Source of the DNA: a virus
Taxonomy: Duplodnaviria > Caudoviricetes
DNA: 41,479 nt
Direction: 5' to 3' (one strand)
IMG/VR virus record: IMGVR_UViG_3300020386_000268
Span: 1 to 41,479 of that record
Position numbers and translations under genes: made by a program. The notes beneath the pieces were generated by a model, which saw only the letters and a list, made by a program, of their open reading frames with translations, was not told where the DNA came from and did not search any database. Below, one piece after another: positions 23,272 to 31,034 of the stretch (the first letter of the stretch is position 1; the number at the start of each line of letters is the position of its first letter).

Positions 23272-23640
23272 CTAATCATCTGATTGTTCTTTGTCGGCAT
23301 ATTCACAGGCATCGTTGTATAAGTTTTTGTTTACTTTATATACATAGTCAACAAAATAATTATACCACTCTACTTTAGAATCAAGTTCAGCATTCTGTTC
23401 TTGCAGTCTTTCCTCATCATATGCATCAGAAGATTTTGACCCATCGTCCTCCAAATTAATTGTTGTAAGAGAATCTGACCCATTGTCTTGGCTCATTATA
23501 TCTAAATCATCTGCATCAGCTTGTGCTATCCACTCTTCATCTGTCCAACTTTCACAATTTGGATAGTCAATATGAAACCCTCCGAGATTCATATAAAATT
23601 CCTTAATTAAGGAAACCTTTTTACTCATTATTTTACTCAT
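23272..23640 (-). CDS. Acidic early hypothetical protein
   Basis: ATG 25 nt after processing site S1. Confidence 0.75.
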   Translation of the reverse strand: MSKIMSKKVSLIKEFYMNLGGFHIDYPNCESWTDEEWIAQADADDLDIMSQDNGSDSLTTINLEDDGSKSSDAYDEERLQEQNAELDSKVEWYNYFVDYVYKVNKNLYNDACEYADKEQSDD

Positions 23641-23649
23641 AATATTTAA

Positions 23650-23693
23650 TTTAAGATTAATAATAGACGTTGAGGGATAGTCTCCTACCCCTC
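23650..23693 (-). repeat. S1: hairpin + hammerhead substrate site (ACGUC^UAUUAUU), cut 23666/23665
   Basis: GAGGGGUAG-GAGA-CUAUCCCUC hairpin, then AACGUCUAUUAUUAAUCUUAAA. Confidence 0.85.
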
Positions 23694-23699
23694 TTGTTT

Positions 23700-24011
23700 T
23701 TACTCAGACTCCCAAATGCTACGAAAATTTGGATTTCCCAGTAACTCTTGATAAGACTCATTTAAAATCTTGTCGTCTTTATATAAGTCTTCAAGATATT
23801 CTTTTAGCTTGGGCATTGTTGTCTTAACGTGCCTTGCTAAATATTTAAATGATTCTCTTTTGCTTGGCTCTTCTATTTCTAAAAAACCATTTTCGTCAAA
23901 GTAAAAATTAAGATTTAAGTTAGTCATCTCTTCGTTTACTTTGTGTGTAATCCATATTGACACCGACTGATTTTCGTGGTCAAAGGATGTACTAAATTTT
24001 GAATGTAACAT
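23700..24011 (-). CDS. Early hypothetical protein
   Basis: ATG 25 nt after S2. Confidence 0.75.
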   Translation of the reverse strand: MLHSKFSTSFDHENQSVSIWITHKVNEEMTNLNLNFYFDENGFLEIEEPSKRESFKYLARHVKTTMPKLKEYLEDLYKDDKILNESYQELLGNPNFRSIWESE

Positions 24012-24020
24012 ATTATTAAA

Positions 24021-24058
24021 TTTAAAGTTAGTAATAGACGTTATATAATACTATATAA
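24021..24058 (-). repeat. S2: hairpin + hammerhead substrate site, cut 24037/24036
   Basis: UUAUAUA-GUAU-UAUAUAA, then CGUCUAUUACUAACUUUAAA. Confidence 0.85.
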
Positions 24059-24090
24059 AAAAATGAGAGGTAGAAAAATCTACCCCCCAT
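24057..24090 (-). terminator. Intrinsic terminator inside the early operon
   Basis: AUGGGGGGUAGA-UUUU-UCUACCUCUCAU (two G.U pairs) followed by a U-tract. Confidence 0.7.
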
Positions 24091-24104
24091 ATAAAAAAAC
24101 TAAT

Positions 24105-24437
24105 CTAATCAACATTAACTAAAACTTCTTCTGAATCCGTACTGAATCCATTAATACCAGTTCCAGTAGAAAAACGTATAGTCCAATAATAGAACGCCAC
24201 TATGTCTCGGTGTTTAGGAGAAATATTTCTCTTTTCAATAGCGTCATCGAGTGTCGAAAAATATTCAACGTGCCTTGAGGGATTTTTACTTGACGGGCAA
24301 TCGCTTTGAATCCAAGTTCCAGTCTTTGATAACATAAAACCTTTCATTTTTTCTGCATCGTAACCTTTCTTGACTACCAAATAGTGGTCAGGATTTTTGT
24401 TTCTTTCTCTTGAAACCTCTGTATATTGATTTTCCAT
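24105..24437 (-). CDS. Early hypothetical protein
   Basis: ATG 25 nt after S3. Confidence 0.75.
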   Translation of the reverse strand: MENQYTEVSRERNKNPDHYLVVKKGYDAEKMKGFMLSKTGTWIQSDCPSSKNPSRHVEYFSTLDDAIEKRNISPKHRDIVAFYYWTIRFSTGTGINGFSTDSEEVLVNVD

Positions 24438-24446
24438 ATAATATTA

Positions 24447-24489
24447 TTTAAAGTTAGTAATAGACGTTGGGGAGGATATACCCCCCCAA
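24447..24489 (-). repeat. S3: hairpin + hammerhead substrate site, cut 24463/24462
   Basis: UUGGGGGGG-UAUAU-CCUCCCCAA, then CGUCUAUUACUAACUUUAAA. Confidence 0.85.
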
Positions 24490-24493
24490 AAAA

Positions 24494-24925
24494 TTATGGG
24501 CTTTCATACAAACATAAAGCCTTCCGTTCTTGGCATAGCCATGTGTCTCTATTGACACCTTTTACAACTGATGTTAGATGACCACCAAACCCTACTTTTA
24601 TATCAAAAATGTAGTTTTTGTTAACATCTAAAAACCTTTTGTGTTTCCACATTGGTAACCAACCCTTACCTTGTTTCAAAGATTTTTTAGTCCACCCTTT
24701 ACTTTCCAAGTAAGGCTCATAAACATCACGACAATTCAAATACGGAATTCCTTTCTCAACTGCCACATCCATTAAGTCTTTAAAGACTTTCATGTAGTCC
24801 AGTTCTAATGATAATGCGATTGCCCTAATAGCACAATCTCCTACCAAATCTTTTTTCTTTCCGACTGGGAAATACTTTTCCCTACCTCCATGAGAATGTT
24901 CATACTTAATAAAATTAATTTTCAT
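24494..24925 (-). CDS. Early protein with possible Cys-His-Asp (papain-like) motifs; start revised to MKINFIK
   Basis: GDCAIRAIA...Y, GGHLTSV..G and DTW. ATG 26 nt after S4. Confidence 0.65.
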   Translation of the reverse strand: MKINFIKYEHSHGGREKYFPVGKKKDLVGDCAIRAIALSLELDYMKVFKDLMDVAVEKGIPYLNCRDVYEPYLESKGWTKKSLKQGKGWLPMWKHKRFLDVNKNYIFDIKVGFGGHLTSVVKGVNRDTWLCQERKALCLYESP

Positions 24926-24935
24926 AATTATATAA

Positions 24936-24976
24936 TTTAAGATTAGTAATAGACGTTGGGGACACATAGCCCCCAA
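24936..24976 (-). repeat. S4: hairpin + hammerhead substrate site, cut 24952/24951
   Basis: UUGGGGGC-UAUGU-GUCCCCAA, then CGUCUAUUACUAAUCUUAAA. Confidence 0.85.
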
Positions 24977-24980
24977 ACAA

Positions 24981-25781
24981 TTATTTAATTAATCTGAATT
25001 GATAGTCACAATCTCCGTTATAATATTCAGCCGAAATAAATGGCTCAAATTTTTCTCCTTGAGATTTTCTTTGCTCCTCAAGTTCTTCAGCTTCAGAACA
25101 ATCATGCTCCGTAACTTTAGTAATCAAATTATCAATCTCTTCAAAATATTCCTCCTTTGTTAAAACTTCAACTTCATTTAAACTTGTTGTTATTTTAACG
25201 CCATACGGAATTTTATTACTTTGATTGAATTCAAGAATCTGATATGACCCATAGTCTTCTCCAACTGAATAAGATATGATTTTTTTCTTCAGTAATCTAC
25301 CATCGCCCCATTGAGAATTATCATCGTAAAACTCCACGCTTGGATGTTCGTGTAGACTCTCACATTTAGGCACAAAACCCTTGTTAAAATTAACTTGTCT
25401 TTTAACAAATTCTTCAGCATCATTATATGCTTGATGCTCACACGAATACTTTTTAATTTGTACACCATTTTCAGAAGAATATCCTTCTCCATTCCAAGTA
25501 TCGACTAAAAGATAGGTTTTGGAAGAAGAATCCTTCATATTGTCCTCATTAACCTTGAGAGTATATAACGGTGTAGGATTGTCTTCCCAATTGATAACAA
25601 TCTCATCGTCAACTAAAAATTGACTTTTGTCGTCAATCACATTCCATTGCTCAAGTTCTTCACGAGAAAATTCATCACTATACTCTCCTTCATTATAAAG
25701 TTTTTGTGCTTGTTCAACTGAATCAGCTTCAACTTCAATTTCTGTTGAAATAGTCTTTGTTTCAATAATTGTAATTTTCAT
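24981..25781 (-). CDS. Acidic early hypothetical protein; start revised to MKITIIETK
   Basis: ATG 26 nt after S5. N-terminal EVEADS.EQA motif is common in small phage domains. Confidence 0.7.
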   Translation of the reverse strand: MKITIIETKTISTEIEVEADSVEQAQKLYNEGEYSDEFSREELEQWNVIDDKSQFLVDDEIVINWEDNPTPLYTLKVNEDNMKDSSSKTYLLVDTWNGEGYSSENGVQIKKYSCEHQAYNDAEEFVKRQVNFNKGFVPKCESLHEHPSVEFYDDNSQWGDGRLLKKKIISYSVGEDYGSYQILEFNQSNKIPYGVKITTSLNEVEVLTKEEYFEEIDNLITKVTEHDCSEAEELEEQRKSQGEKFEPFISAEYYNGDCDYQFRLIK

Positions 25782-25791
25782 AATATTTAAT

Positions 25792-25835
25792 TTTAAGATT
25801 AGTAATAGACGTTGGAGGGAAATACATCCCTCCAA
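25792..25835 (-). repeat. S5: hairpin + hammerhead substrate site, cut 25808/25807
   Basis: UUGGAGGGA-UGUAUU-UCCCUCCAA, then CGUCUAUUACUAAUCUUAAA. Confidence 0.85.
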
Positions 25836-25840
25836 TCATA

Positions 25841-26806
25841 TTAAACAAAAACTCTTCCTAAACCATTATCAGCAGTAACCTTACCACCAAATCCATAATT
25901 AGATTTTTGTGCAACGATATTGCTAAACTGGTTGAAGATAGATTGATCAAGTCTTTGAAGACTACCAGTCAATTTAGACTCTTGTCTTGAATTCTCTGAC
26001 CCTCCTTTGTGAGTGCTATAATGTGTAACACCACTAAATAAACCCCATAGTGTTTTACCTTTATAACTCATCTCTTCAGCGATTGACCTTGTAACTTTCT
26101 CACAAATATTAATCTTCCTTGTACTATACTTATCTTGGGCAATAGCCATAGAAAGTTTAGTATCAACTCCACTAATTTTTTCAATCACTTTTTGTGCAAA
26201 GGAATCATCAATCTCAATGTTTGCCATCTTATTAAAAGTCTCGTACAGACTTGTATCAGACTCTTCAAGATTTTCCAATGCTCTCAATGATACATCTATT
26301 AGTCTTCTCATATTGCTCGTATGACGTGCAGAGGATTCTAATGATTTTTTCATTGCAGAGAATTGATTGTCACATGAAATTGTAACTCCAGTAGTACCCC
26401 ATCTTAATGAGGTGCTACCATCATGAGAATTAATAGCAGTTGCATAACGCTTGATTGTATCTTGACCAACTTTGATTGGCTCCAGTTCCAACTGCATCGC
26501 AACTCTACGACCACCTTTAAATGATACACCATGTGTTATTGGTTTCCCAATCACATCGGCAACATTCAAAACCAGTTCAGCCAGTTCTGAATTTTGGAAT
26601 ATTTCGTATTGCTTGGTAAATGCACCAAAACAATCTTTGTTATCTGAACGGACAACACCGAAAAAATCGGTTTTGTATGAATCGACACCATCAATAAATT
26701 GCAATGGTTTCTTTTCAACTTTCCAATTCATGTTAAACTTATCCAAAGTATTTTCTACTTCTGACTTGCTAATAAACTCTTGATTTTTTGTAATAGAATT
26801 TTTCAT
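25841..26806 (-). CDS. DUF932-family (phage/plasmid-like) protein
   Basis: MNWKVEK.P, VVRSDN...G...QYEIFQN, GGRRV, NSHDGSTS, SCDNQF, RHT and TLWGLFSGVTHY. Confidence 0.8.
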   Translation of the reverse strand: MKNSITKNQEFISKSEVENTLDKFNMNWKVEKKPLQFIDGVDSYKTDFFGVVRSDNKDCFGAFTKQYEIFQNSELAELVLNVADVIGKPITHGVSFKGGRRVAMQLELEPIKVGQDTIKRYATAINSHDGSTSLRWGTTGVTISCDNQFSAMKKSLESSARHTSNMRRLIDVSLRALENLEESDTSLYETFNKMANIEIDDSFAQKVIEKISGVDTKLSMAIAQDKYSTRKINICEKVTRSIAEEMSYKGKTLWGLFSGVTHYSTHKGGSENSRQESKLTGSLQRLDQSIFNQFSNIVAQKSNYGFGGKVTADNGLGRVFV

Positions 26807-26815
26807 TTTATATAA

Positions 26816-26854
26816 TTTAAGATTAGTAATAGACGTGGGAGGATTACCCTCCCA
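26816..26854 (-). repeat. S6: hairpin + hammerhead substrate site, cut 26832/26831
   Basis: UGGGAGG-GUAAU-CCUCCCA, then CGUCUAUUACUAAUCUUAAA. Confidence 0.85.
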
Positions 26855-26860
26855 TTGTAA

Positions 26861-27091
26861 CTAAAGATTCCTACCGAATGCCATAAACTCATCAATCTCA
26901 TCAAGTCCATCGATAAGTTTATCTATTCTTGGCAATTGTGATGGCTCATTGTGTATTGCAAACTTTTTCAGTTCCAACAATGAACACCATAATGTGCCGA
27001 TGTTATCATCATAATTTTTAGGATTAGAATTAACATAGAATACTGCATTTTGCTCTTTAGCTAAATCAAAGTGTTTAGATATAATATCCAT
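26861..27091 (-). CDS. Early hypothetical protein
   Basis: ATG 25 nt after S7. Confidence 0.75.
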   Translation of the reverse strand: MDIISKHFDLAKEQNAVFYVNSNPKNYDDNIGTLWCSLLELKKFAIHNEPSQLPRIDKLIDGLDEIDEFMAFGRNL

Positions 27092-27100
27092 TTTATTTTA

Positions 27101-27141
27101 TTTAAGATTAGTAATAGACGTTGGGAGATTGTCTCTCCCAA
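27101..27141 (-). repeat. S7: hairpin + hammerhead substrate site, cut 27117/27116
   Basis: UUGGGAGA-GACAA-UCUCCCAA, then CGUCUAUUACUAAUCUUAAA. Confidence 0.85.
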
Positions 27142-27151
27142 TCACAAACAA

Positions 27152-27340
27152 TCAGTTAATCTTGATTGAATGTTTTTTCAATTGTTCTGAATTTTCTAAT
27201 TGCTCACATACGTTGTAAACTACGGCATTAATTAGTTTGAATGTTTGAGGATTTAATCCGCTAACATCTAATTTATCTAATGCGTTACAAGTAAGAATTT
27301 CAGCATTTGAAAACATTTGAATTGAAATTGTATTTTCCAT
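27152..27340 (-). CDS. Early hypothetical protein
   Basis: ATG 26 nt after S8. Confidence 0.75.
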   Translation of the reverse strand: MENTISIQMFSNAEILTCNALDKLDVSGLNPQTFKLINAVVYNVCEQLENSEQLKKHSIKIN

Positions 27341-27351
27341 TTTATATAATA

Positions 27352-27392
27352 TTTAGATTAGTAATAGACGTTGGAGGAATCTCTTCCTCCGA
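27352..27392 (-). repeat. S8: hairpin + hammerhead substrate site, cut 27367/27366
   Basis: GGAGGAA-GAGA-UUCCUCC, then AACGUCUAUUACUAAUCUAAA. Confidence 0.85.
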
Positions 27393-27398
27393 CCATAA

Positions 27399-27704
27399 TT
27401 AAATAGACTCTTCTACTCTATCTAATATTTCAGAAAGTTCAATTAGTGTACTTGGTTTGAATATTTCTGACTCATGCAAATCAGTCATAAGTCTATCATA
27501 CCAGTAACCATCAAAAAGTCCAAACAGCATGTTTGTTATTTCAGAATCATAATCTCCAGTTCCATAGGTTGATTGAATCATATTTAATACCAATGTTCTA
27601 TCATCCTGTCCAAAAATTTCGTGTCTGTCAAATCTTCTGTGAGTGTACTCTTTCGTTGGATTCATATGTTTCTGAATCTTCTGTAGATAATTAGTGTAGT
27701 TCAT
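27399..27704 (-). CDS. First early gene, hypothetical
   Basis: ATG 27 nt after the ribozyme cis cleavage site. Confidence 0.75.
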   Translation of the reverse strand: MNYTNYLQKIQKHMNPTKEYTHRRFDRHEIFGQDDRTLVLNMIQSTYGTGDYDSEITNMLFGLFDGYWYDRLMTDLHESEIFKPSTLIELSEILDRVEESI

Positions 27705-27724
27705 TTTAATATAGTTTTAAGATT

Positions 27725-27827
27725 AGTAATAGACGCAGAGGTAATTGAAACAACTACCTCATCGTCACGTTTCGTCCTGTATGAAAGCTACTAAACGCTC
27801 AAACCATTTGGACTCGTCAGTATTACT
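27725..27827 (-). ncRNA. Type I hammerhead ribozyme, predicted cleavage GUC^ at 27732/27731
   Basis: Minus strand reads AGUAAUA (stem I) CUGACGA (core) GUCC-32 nt-GGAC (stem II) GAA ACG..hairpin..CGU (stem III) C^ UAUUACU (stem I'). All core nucleotides and three stems are present. Confidence 0.93.
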
Positions 27828-28085
27828 GGGTTTGATTAGCTTCCATCAATCTTTAAATATATATGTATAGACGGCATTTAGCCGTAGTCCCTATCTCCAT
27901 TGGAGGAGGATGTAGTCAACACTGGGAGCGAGGATGCTCTACCACCATGCCTATGTTGGCAATTGTTGATAAGAAGACTACGTTTGGATTGTGTAGTGAG
28001 CGAATCGCTCTTGGGTTTTTAACCTGACTGCTTCTCTTCAGCCGTCTTCAGTAATCTACAGATTGGCATCCGTCCAAAAGACACA

Positions 28086-28117
28086 CAAATATAATGTATT
28101 AGTTCGAATCTACCAAA
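28086..28117 (-). promoter_or_regulatory. Bacteroidota sigma70-type early promoter (TTTG-N20-TATATTTG)
   Basis: Perfect -33/-7 consensus pointing into the ribozyme leader and early operon. Confidence 0.8.
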
Positions 28118-29190: not shown

Positions 29191-30780
29191 ATGATAGAAA
29201 AAAATATAGATTTTAATGACGACGCTAAAGTTTCTTTGATTGAAGGAGTAAACAAAGTAGCTGACGCAGTAAGCTCTACACTTGGAGCAGCCGGAACAAC
29301 CGTGATACTTGAAGATCAAACTGGTAGACCACACATAACTAAAGACGGAGTAACAGTTGCAAAGACAATAAACCTATCAGACCCGGTAGAACATCTCGCA
29401 GCTGAGATTATAAAACAAGCCTCTATTAAGACAGCTGATGAAGCTGGAGACGGAACAACCACCTCTATAGTTTTAGCTAGAGCTATTATTGGTAACGCTT
29501 TTGAAAAAATTAAAGAAAACCCCAAAATCAATGTTACAAAACTTAGAGAAGAAATAGAATATTTATCAGATAAGGTATATCAGTATTTAGATAAAAAAGC
29601 AAAACCAGTAGATGAGCAGTCTGTTGAAAGCGTAGCAACTATATCAGCAAACAATGACGCTGCTCTTGGAAAAATAATTTCCCAAGCATACAATAAAGTT
29701 GGGGTTGATGGCGTTGTAACTATAGAGGAGTCTATGACATCTGAAACCTATGTAGAGATAGTTGAAGGAACAAGAATCAAGAAAGGCTTCCAAAGCCCAT
29801 ACCTAATCACTGACAAAGAAAAAAACACTGTCGTACTAGACAATCCCTTTGTTTTAATATCTGATAAAAAAATTGATGTCCTTGAAGACATAGAGGTCCC
29901 ACTTAAGACCGCTATGAATACCAAAAGATCGCTCCTTATCATATCTGAAATAGAACAACCTGTAATGAACGTGCTTAATGTGAATAAGGCAAAAGGTATT
30001 CTTAAGGTGAATGTGCTTCCTCCAGAGGGAGTTGGATTGAATCGGTTTGAATTGTTGGAAGACCTTGCGGCTATGACTGGAGCGATTGTGGTATCAGATC
30101 AGACGGGTAACGATTGGAATGGTGTTACACCTGAATTTCTTGGCGAAGCCAAAAAGTCGGTGTCAACAAATAAAGAAACCATATTAACTCTAAACCTAAA
30201 AAAAACTGCTGACGCAGTTTCAAGTCAAGTAGAGAGAATAAAATCAATATTAAAGAATAAAGAGGATGTATCAAATGATTGGCATTATAGGGATCGACTC
30301 TCTAGGCTGTCCGGCGGCATTGCTGCAATATTTGTTGGAGCCCATACTGAGGTAGAAATGAAAGAAAAGAAGGATAGAGTTGATGACGCAATATGTGCAA
30401 CTAGAGCTGCTCTTGAAGAGGGGATACTTCCAGGGGGTGGTGTTGCTCTTTTCCATGCCTCCTCAACTATATTTGGAATGTCAGTCGGAAAAAAAGAAGA
30501 AAGAAGGGTGGCTTGCGAAATATTATACAAGGCACTTGAAGAACCATTTAGAACCATAGTTCACAATTCAGGTATAAACATAGATCATATAGAAGAAAAG
30601 ATTGTTAAGTCTGGTAGACATTCTTATGGTTATGATGTAAAAAACAAAAGAACAGGAGACATGTTTAAATATGGCATAATTGATCCACTTAAAGTTACAA
30701 AGATGGCTCTGAAGAACGCTATATCTGTATCTAACACTATTCTGCAAACTAATTGTGTAATATCAAACAAAAGAGCATGA
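29191..30780 (+). CDS. groEL: Phage-encoded chaperonin GroEL
   Basis: ITKDGVTVAK, AGDGTTT, VATISANND, KKDRVDDA..ATRAA.EEGILPGGG and GIIDPLKV. Confidence 0.97.
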   Translation: MIEKNIDFNDDAKVSLIEGVNKVADAVSSTLGAAGTTVILEDQTGRPHITKDGVTVAKTINLSDPVEHLAAEIIKQASIKTADEAGDGTTTSIVLARAIIGNAFEKIKENPKINVTKLREEIEYLSDKVYQYLDKKAKPVDEQSVESVATISANNDAALGKIISQAYNKVGVDGVVTIEESMTSETYVEIVEGTRIKKGFQSPYLITDKEKNTVVLDNPFVLISDKKIDVLEDIEVPLKTAMNTKRSLLIISEIEQPVMNVLNVNKAKGILKVNVLPPEGVGLNRFELLEDLAAMTGAIVVSDQTGNDWNGVTPEFLGEAKKSVSTNKETILTLNLKKTADAVSSQVERIKSILKNKEDVSNDWHYRDRLSRLSGGIAAIFVGAHTEVEMKEKKDRVDDAICATRAALEEGILPGGGVALFHASSTIFGMSVGKKEERRVACEILYKALEEPFRTIVHNSGINIDHIEEKIVKSGRHSYGYDVKNKRTGDMFKYGIIDPLKVTKMALKNAISVSNTILQTNCVISNKRA

Positions 30781-31034
30781 AAGCATTAGGTAGCTTTGTT
30801 TTACTAGAAGAGGTAAAAGAAGAAATAAAAAATGACATGGGGCTAGTTGTAACTGCTTCAAGTGAGCAAAAAATAAGATACAAGCTAGCAAAAGTAATAA
30901 CAACAGGAGAAGATGTAAATGGAATTAACGCTGGAGATAGTGTTTATTATGACACTGCTGCTGGTTCTGATATTCGATTGGACGGGAAAAGACTAGTAGT
31001 TGTACACGACAGGGGTGTAGTTATAGTTTTGTGA
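30777..31034 (+). CDS. groES: Co-chaperonin GroES
   Basis: MKALGSFVLL...GLVV...AKVITTGEDV.GI.AGDSVYY...G..I. ATGA overlap with groEL. Confidence 0.85.
   Translation: MKALGSFVLLEEVKEEIKNDMGLVVTASSEQKIRYKLAKVITTGEDVNGINAGDSVYYDTAAGSDIRLDGKRLVVVHDRGVVIVL

Follow-up and report, generated by a model that had tools for sequence, protein, structure and literature searches.

The early transcription unit and its hammerhead sequences

The window analyzed here is a stretch of 41,479 nucleotides of a marine phage, covering positions 1 to 41,479 of the virus record IMGVR_UViG_3300020386_000268 (Caudoviricetes), a linear record that is ~67% complete. On its minus strand, nine early genes follow a leader that contains a single hammerhead ribozyme. 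The ribozyme's own cleavage site precedes the first gene, and each of the other eight is preceded by a core-less site, here called a tag, that has only the substrate half of a hammerhead (S8, nearest the leader, to S1; Table 1). This tag pattern is real and far beyond chance. An earlier reading made from the sequence alone (the sequence-only reading) had described a complete hammerhead in the early leader with arms AGUAAUA and ACGU, as well as eight substrate halves without a core. The canonical core, all of the coordinates, and the eight predicted cuts were confirmed, and no CUGANGA-stem-GAAA arrangement was found on the minus strand from 27730 to 23200. The hairpin ahead of every site, a third arm (Ib), a predicted pseudoknot, and a decoy strand are additions to that reading. 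Three RNA data sets from the same sample gave no contig over this region, a result that counts neither for nor against its expression.

Table 1. Features of the early transcription unit and the positions of the predicted cuts
Feature	Position	Strand	Basis
Promoter P1 (TTTG-N20-TATATTTG), likely early-transcript start	28086..28117	-	Presumed Bacteroidetes-type pattern, and position
Conserved structured noncoding 5' domain (~200 nt), closed by GACGG/CCGUC helix	27870..28078	-	6/6 aligned loci
Recognition arm Ib (UUUAAAGAUU); pairs with +8..+16 of each site, one bulged A	27848..27857	-
Stem I insert (20 nt); predicted pseudoknot with loop II (27805-27781)	27828..27847	-	Folding
Recognition arm Ia (AGUAAUA)	27821..27827	-
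Hammerhead core: CUGACGA, stem II (GUCC/GGAC, 4 bp), 33-nt loop II, GAAA	27770..27820	-	Canonical sequence
Recognition arm III (ACGU)	27767..27770	-
Decoy strand GACG (27766-27763) and 10-bp hairpin; predicted capture of own CGUC tail	27738..27766	-	Folding
Own site GCGUC^UAUUACU-AAUCUUAAA, predicted cut 27732/27731	27716..27736	-	Sequence register
Nine early genes, one site ahead of each	23272..27704	-	Gene-start census
S8: hairpin and core-less site, predicted cut 27367/6	27351..27392	-
S7: hairpin and site, predicted cut 27117/6	27101..27142	-
S6: hairpin and site ahead of DUF932 gene, predicted cut 26832/1	26816..26856	-
S5: hairpin and site, predicted cut 25808/7	25792..25835	-
S4: hairpin and site, predicted cut 24952/1	24936..24977	-
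S3: hairpin and site with tail variant AACUUUAAA, predicted cut 24463/2	24447..24490	-
S2: terminator-like hairpin and U-run (24090-24063), weak A/U hairpin, site (tail AACUUUAAA), predicted cut 24037/6	24021..24090	-
S1: hairpin and site, one G.U in stem Ia, predicted cut 23666/5	23650..23697	-
Promoter-like element P2	23238..23269	-	19 nt in common with P1

On sequence criteria, the window ribozyme is a type I hammerhead, and its catalytic fold belongs to a known class: a canonical core is surrounded by three helices with stem I open, and the cleavage triplet GUC is present at 27734-27732 and in all eight tags. An Rfam search of the window returned no hammerhead family at E <= 1, which we attribute to model coverage because compact hammerheads in two other contigs (L098 and L106) were likewise missed at the gathering threshold. 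The idea that a G.U pair weakens stem III in cis was dropped (-2.0 versus -1.7 kcal/mol). The 5' domain, with which the enzyme RNA would begin, matched no Rfam family; 2 of its 37 predicted pairs are compensatory among the six aligned loci, and its counterparts lie at L004 162-358, L266 899-1071, L007 1395-1591, L089 8681-8873, and L263 617-809.

The tag is a 21-letter repeat, all of which except the cleaved C complements the ribozyme. The 12-mer ACGTCTATTACT occurs in seven exact minus-strand copies; S1 (one mismatch) and the cis site of the ribozyme (GCGTC) are near matches. When as many as two mismatches were allowed, 12 matches were found versus 3.35 expected, a number reached by 0 of 100 shuffles. 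All eight tags form 4 + 7 pairs with arms III and Ia, and S1 (TATTATT) retains its stem I pairing through G.U, as the sequence-only reading held. A third arm, Ib, forms nine pairs with seven of the eight tags (seven pairs with S8) and is the best complement of the tag tails within the 385-nt leader. Its mean pairing energy with the nine window tails was -5.5 kcal/mol; the mean was -1.8 when 30 other leaders of the window replaced the tails (p = 4e-6), and it was -2.2 when the arm was shuffled (p = 0.004). Arm Ib removes the main objection, namely that conservation of the repeat exceeds the arms. When both window strands were searched with a loose III/Ia test, five other places passed, none of them perfect. 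One of the five (12953, plus strand) forms 8/9 pairs with Ib, and the other four match this arm poorly.

The sites precede 9/9 consecutive gene starts between P1 and P2 and 0/10 of the next starts, at a distance from the start codon of 25 to 26 nt for the tags and 27 nt for the ribozyme's own site (ATG at 27704). This fixed distance would suit phage-specific promoters or DNA/protein-binding sites whose match to the ribozyme is a by-product, as would the location of S2 behind a terminator-like element, which resembles a restart. Such an explanation, which we consider very improbable, gives no reason for 20 positions that are complementary to three separate RNA arms. In addition, both Bacteroidetes promoter boxes occur together only at P1 and P2 within 28300-22900, and no RNA polymerase was recognized in the window, the record being ~67% complete. 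A virion RNA polymerase in a 2,354-amino-acid open reading frame was dropped as a candidate (no clear motif and no PDB match), and a sigma-70 promoter scan remained at chance level (40 versus 36.4). P1 follows what we presume to be the Bacteroidetes consensus; the pattern is weak alone (5 matches, reached by 6/100 shuffles), and the position of P1 is the argument for it. The terminator-like hairpin directly before a tag with an A/U-only hairpin suggests attenuation or antitermination inside the early unit. Two such terminator-like elements occur in L004, L007, and L266.

Every tag has a hairpin that ends ~5 nt ahead of the predicted cut (seven at -10 to -16 kcal/mol; S2, -0.7). Together with ACGUC, this hairpin mirrors the 3' half of the ribozyme, as expected if the hammerhead cuts only itself and the tags are leader cassettes that were copied from its 3' half, homogenized by recombination, and used as gene-exchange joints like the PeSL cassettes (a precedent described in PMC2839356). 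Such copying would fit the varying gene content between tags among relatives and the presence in the phage of exonucleases and a Rad52/Erf-like annealing protein. However, hairpin sequences vary from site to site while conservation begins at -4 and fades past about +16, which are the limits of the arms, and we regard self-cleavage alone, the main rival to cutting by a shared enzyme, as unlikely. By folding, the tags are predicted to be accessible, with a mean unpaired probability of 0.5 to 0.8 at -4 to +7 versus <0.1 at -10 to -6 (32 tags). On the plus strand, sub-threshold matches to the FopS small RNA lie at 23630-23703 and 25771-25845, and FopS 5' ends resemble the complement of the tag leaders; identity with FopS was rejected (33.4 and 31.1 bits opposite S5 and S1, respectively; gathering threshold, 56 bits).

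Covariation of arms and tags in related phages

Relatives were gathered by DNA-pattern, DUF932, and GroEL scans, and their contigs are given here by L numbers; contigs that duplicate, or nearly duplicate, the window or a counted contig (L001-L003, L005, L006, L010, L168, L268, L269, and L273) were left out. Three tag-bearing lineages form one clade in the DUF932 tree (95/89). In lineage A (the window, L004, L266, and L007), arm Ia reads AGUAAUR and the tags UAUUACU. In lineage B (L089 and L263; DUF932 63% identical), arm Ia reads AGUAUAU and the tags AUAUACU. Three arm Ia positions differ between the two lineages, and the complementary three differ in every tag, so the arms covary with the repeats in relatives as the sequence-only reading predicted.

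With their own enzyme, the 33 nonredundant tags (22 from A and 11 from B) form 655 of 660 pairs: 132/132 in III, 231/231 in Ia, and 292/297 in Ib. The other lineage's enzyme has three Ia mismatches at 33/33 tags. This count excludes L264 (two tags, no enzyme in the contig) and the L107 lineage, and two coding-region look-alikes were not counted as tags. The tail variants are also lineage specific. AACUUUAAA is present in 6/22 A tags and 0/11 B tags, and only arm Ib of lineage A can pair with it along its whole length. For AAUCUUAAU, which is present in 5/11 B tags and 0/22 A tags, the only fully matching arm Ib is that of lineage B. At an orthologous site in L007 and L089, 35 nt through ACGUC are identical, and the bases that follow match each phage's own ribozyme. 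Distinct III/Ia deviations among the tags number three, all of them G.U pairs, an observation that is weak alone. Both the tail variants and the restriction of deviations to G.U are left unexplained if the hammerhead cuts only itself. No degenerate tag was seen in the gene-start census. The proposed cutting of the early message into single genes fits the window, where all nine starts have a site; in relatives, closely coupled genes share one site.

The covariation is explained equally well by a leader RNA that binds the tags but does not cut them efficiently. In this reading, the RNA would be an antisense regulator or guide that blocks the region of translation start or brings in a protein nuclease. 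Pairing with arms Ia and Ib would span about -26 to -10 relative to each start codon, translation in Flavobacterium is described as tuned by mRNA structure (PMC6847099), and the core of lineage B is noncanonical, all of which would be compatible with such a role. Binding, however, would not need the GUC that 33/33 tags keep in exact hammerhead register with an unpaired C, and the window core is canonical, with a stem II that covaries (U-A to A-U in L007). We therefore judge antisense action without efficient cutting to be improbable.

In the B core (L089 8898-8965 and L263 834-901), a hairpin comes after CUGANGA, and G8-A9 and stem II could be provided by its loop, AGAGAY; this is possibly a new hammerhead core variant. 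Section 8 of PMC3088659 describes weak stems II and some insertions as tolerated in hammerheads, but not the form of the B core. Lineage C (L107, L174, and L279) has a hairpin and the tag NYCUC^AUUUAAC, with UC kept. A scan for this tag found arrays only in L107 and L174, both beginning mid-array, and a scan for the predicted arms gave 81 viral matches, none with the tag of that lineage.

The in-clade relative L267/L088 has neither a leader ribozyme nor tags. Leaders in L088 that share a motif with the leader of the cis hammerhead do not keep NUH, which argues against tags as copied leader cassettes. A first leader motif returned L168 and three coding-looking matches. In GTDB, no DUF932 relative was found, and none of 26 matches to a further leader motif was a hammerhead-and-tag array; the viral scan with this further motif returned four family contigs and one unrelated hairpin. 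Among annotated phages, none was close to the window phage; all DUF932 matches were <60%, and the ribozyme region had no match. Repeats of GGTCACCC in L090-L101 were dropped as candidates, since they included coding positions. The first gene (27399-27704; L089 9075-9371) is 90% identical between A and B (best segment), and the other shared genes are 38 to 69% identical. This suggests a recent module exchange of the first gene, though its flanking tags follow each lineage's own ribozyme. An Rfam DUF805b RNA motif lies downstream of the array in L089 (13686-13718), and similar sequence occurs in L012, L023, L025, and L038.

Proposed mode of action

The explanation that we favor, and consider probable from the observed complementarity, placement, and covariation, is that one ribozyme cuts all nine sites and thereby yields single-gene messages, with the eight tags cut either in trans or over a long range. 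Strict trans, tethered, and long-range actions are indistinguishable by comparative data. The early transcript would start with an RNA of ~350 nt ending in the hammerhead, whose three arms match the site before each of the nine genes. According to folding predictions, the decoy would capture the ribozyme's own tail and thereby free arm III, and a pseudoknot would tie the stem I insert to loop II. The latter contact is predicted to have 17 bp, with one compensatory and two G.U-type changes among only four sequences, and 23 of 500 shuffles scored as high. After a cut, the enzyme would stay on the downstream product via Ia and Ib. Arm III would then serve as a toehold that docks the next tag, and the Ia and Ib strands would be exchanged from the previous product. 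With product retention and toehold strand exchange, few ribozymes could therefore serve many sites. Each piece would begin with a 5'-OH and an A/U-rich, unstructured leader of 25 to 27 nt, and its 3' end would have a protective hairpin and carry a cyclic phosphate; 5'-OH and cyclic phosphate ends are standard hammerhead chemistry.

Support for an arm III that is predicted to be open came from a comparison with ordinary hammerheads. DUF932 phages outside the clade have compact complete type I hammerheads 11 to 43 nt before gene starts, with at most three per locus. The predicted probability of cis stem III closure was 0.01 to 0.16 in four lineage A enzymes versus 0.96 to 1.00 in 15/15 of the ordinary type I hammerheads, which are mutually related and not independent. 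In lineage A, stem III is predicted to be open because the decoy takes the tail. A second matching site was absent for 13 of the 15 controls, and two L131 rows share one loose match. Arm III of L007 forms 7 bp with 3/6 of its own tags (-8.5 kcal/mol) versus -2.9 kcal/mol with its own site. Cis-only cleavage leaves unexplained both the open arm III and an L007 arm that fits tags better than its own site. Near DUF932, genes of these phages are commonly preceded by complete hammerheads of types I and III (L088, L090, L091, L097-L099, L106, L109, L129, L131, L138, and L143).

Several points weigh against cutting by a shared enzyme. Cutting itself is argued from sequence comparison, and the covariation comes from a single contrast, between the only two lineages in which both ribozyme and tags were seen. 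Since any arm has to match the cis site of its ribozyme, tags copied from that site by recombination would match too. Because tags were picked by pattern, the III/Ia pair counts are inflated, and the three G.U-only changes have a chance of 1/8 if only transitions occur. The gene-start census includes some miscalled starts and one 303-nt gap in L263. In lineage B, the core has extra nucleotides between CUGANGA and stem II, and arm III is partly open (probability of closure, 0.29 to 0.51). The lineage C enzyme was not found in its contigs, which begin inside the array. Sixteen base pairs held on the product could slow turnover, and the terminator-like element on the coding strand before S2 (one of eight intergenic regions) implies read-through. 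Cassettes of hairpin and leader that have no hammerhead core occur in L025, L026, and L038 (two each in the 9 to 10 kb examined), which favors the copying of leaders, and in one case, L007 gene 6329, the leader has AAUCUUAAA but no cut site. The cassettes of L025, L026, and L038 share an AAAUC(C)AAAC-type leader.

By analogy with the per-gene hammerheads that appear to do the same in related phages, the purpose of tag cutting is likely uncoupled translation and stability of the early genes. Short unstructured leaders would suit a host that tunes translation starts by mRNA structure (PMC6847099). The system likely descends from an array of per-gene hammerheads whose cores disappeared, except in one enzyme, which acquired a decoy and an additional arm. 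With somewhat less confidence, we lean toward viewing it as a small ribozyme turned into a multi-target RNA endonuclease that is guide-armed, reset by a decoy, and handed from tag to tag, with the arm Ia bases as a lineage address code. A layout of one core and an upstream core-less site was also seen in L110 (2900-3210) and L111 (720-1065), where arm III matches that site over 7 bp versus 3 bp in cis; L112 (8170-8250) is without the upstream site and has a changed arm. The site lies within an uncharacterized RNA, and an independent origin of one core with many sites is a possible lead.

Comparison with known systems and other features of the phage

In T7, the early transcript is cut to gene-sized pieces by host RNase III at hairpin-bearing intergenic sites. 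RNase III is a host protein that cuts inside double-stranded stems, whereas in the window the predicted cut is in hammerhead register and falls 5 nt past the 3' side of the hairpin. The discontinuous CLEC2 hammerhead of rodents has strands that are far apart but a single long-range site in one mRNA, compared with eight putative targets in the window phage. RNase P is large and hydrolytic, identifies its substrates by the shape of tRNA, and depends on a protein partner in vivo; the window enzyme is small and transesterifying and would recognize its targets by ~20 bp. The likeness to RNase P RNA would be that of a natural RNA enzyme processing other RNAs in trans (PMC6765202).

Clustered complete hammerheads that flank genes in prophages were proposed to cut long transcripts to operon- or gene-length mRNAs (Perreault et al. 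2011; PMC3088659). The window system resembles these in ribozyme class, phage setting, and proposed outcome. Stem I-II pseudoknots, of the kind predicted for the window, are described as common in the prophage hammerheads, whose per-gene layout is that of the window's DUF932 relatives. There, each cut has a complete ribozyme, whereas the window has one core, eight core-less sites, an extra recognition helix, and a decoy that is predicted to keep arm III open. Because per-gene cores are absent, the window system falls outside the clustered-cis kind, and by analogy it likely works to the same end. SINE-like hammerheads of Schistosoma, which act in cis or in trans in vitro, and dimeric Penelope-like hammerheads (PMC6765202) are natural and act across molecules, but their targets are copies of the same repeat, each with a core, whereas the window tags are core-less and precede unrelated genes. 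Engineered trans-cleaving hammerheads (PMC6412130) likewise have separate enzyme and substrate strands but are artificial. The PeSL cassettes of T4-type phages are repeated stem-loops between small variable early genes, probably gene-shuffling joints, with a promoter and a terminator (PMC2839356). The window tags, in contrast, have no host-type promoter per cassette, have a terminator-like element with a U-run before S2 only, and complement a ribozyme.

In the literature searched, mostly open-access and at title/abstract level, no natural phage hammerhead with core-less targets was found described. Small nucleolytic ribozymes are presented as self-cleaving, with RNase P as the trans-acting model (PMC6765202), and trans-cleaving hammerheads are presented as mostly engineered (PMC6412130). 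What is new here is the proposed mode of use, not the catalytic fold. If the tags are cut, a natural hammerhead would act as an enzyme on a dedicated, coevolving target set, which would surprise ribozyme specialists. The phage would then allow the long-standing idea of phage ribozymes that dice polycistronic mRNA to be tested directly. It would also show how evolution could lead from a separate ribozyme for every gene, as in the relatives, to one shared enzyme, and it would offer a naturally selected design for trans-ribozymes (split stem I, pseudoknot anchor, and decoy). In the multi-target reading, a newly arriving gene would become part of the unit once it had a tag, and messages would be safe from the enzymes of phages of other lineages.

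Among the nine early genes, DUF932 (25841-26806) matches Pfam, 24494-24925 matches a PHROG of unknown function, and the remaining seven have no match. Their leaders are A/U-rich and have no Shine-Dalgarno motifs. Because of these leaders and the Bacteroidetes-type promoter at 28117-28086, the host of the window phage is inferred to belong to the Bacteroidetes and is probably flavobacterial. The window also encodes crAss-muzzle-like and T7 gp14-like virion proteins, a primase-helicase, SSB, the Rad52/Erf annealing protein and exonucleases, and GroEL/ES. The GroEL and GroES genes (29191-31034, plus strand) are oriented divergently from the early unit.

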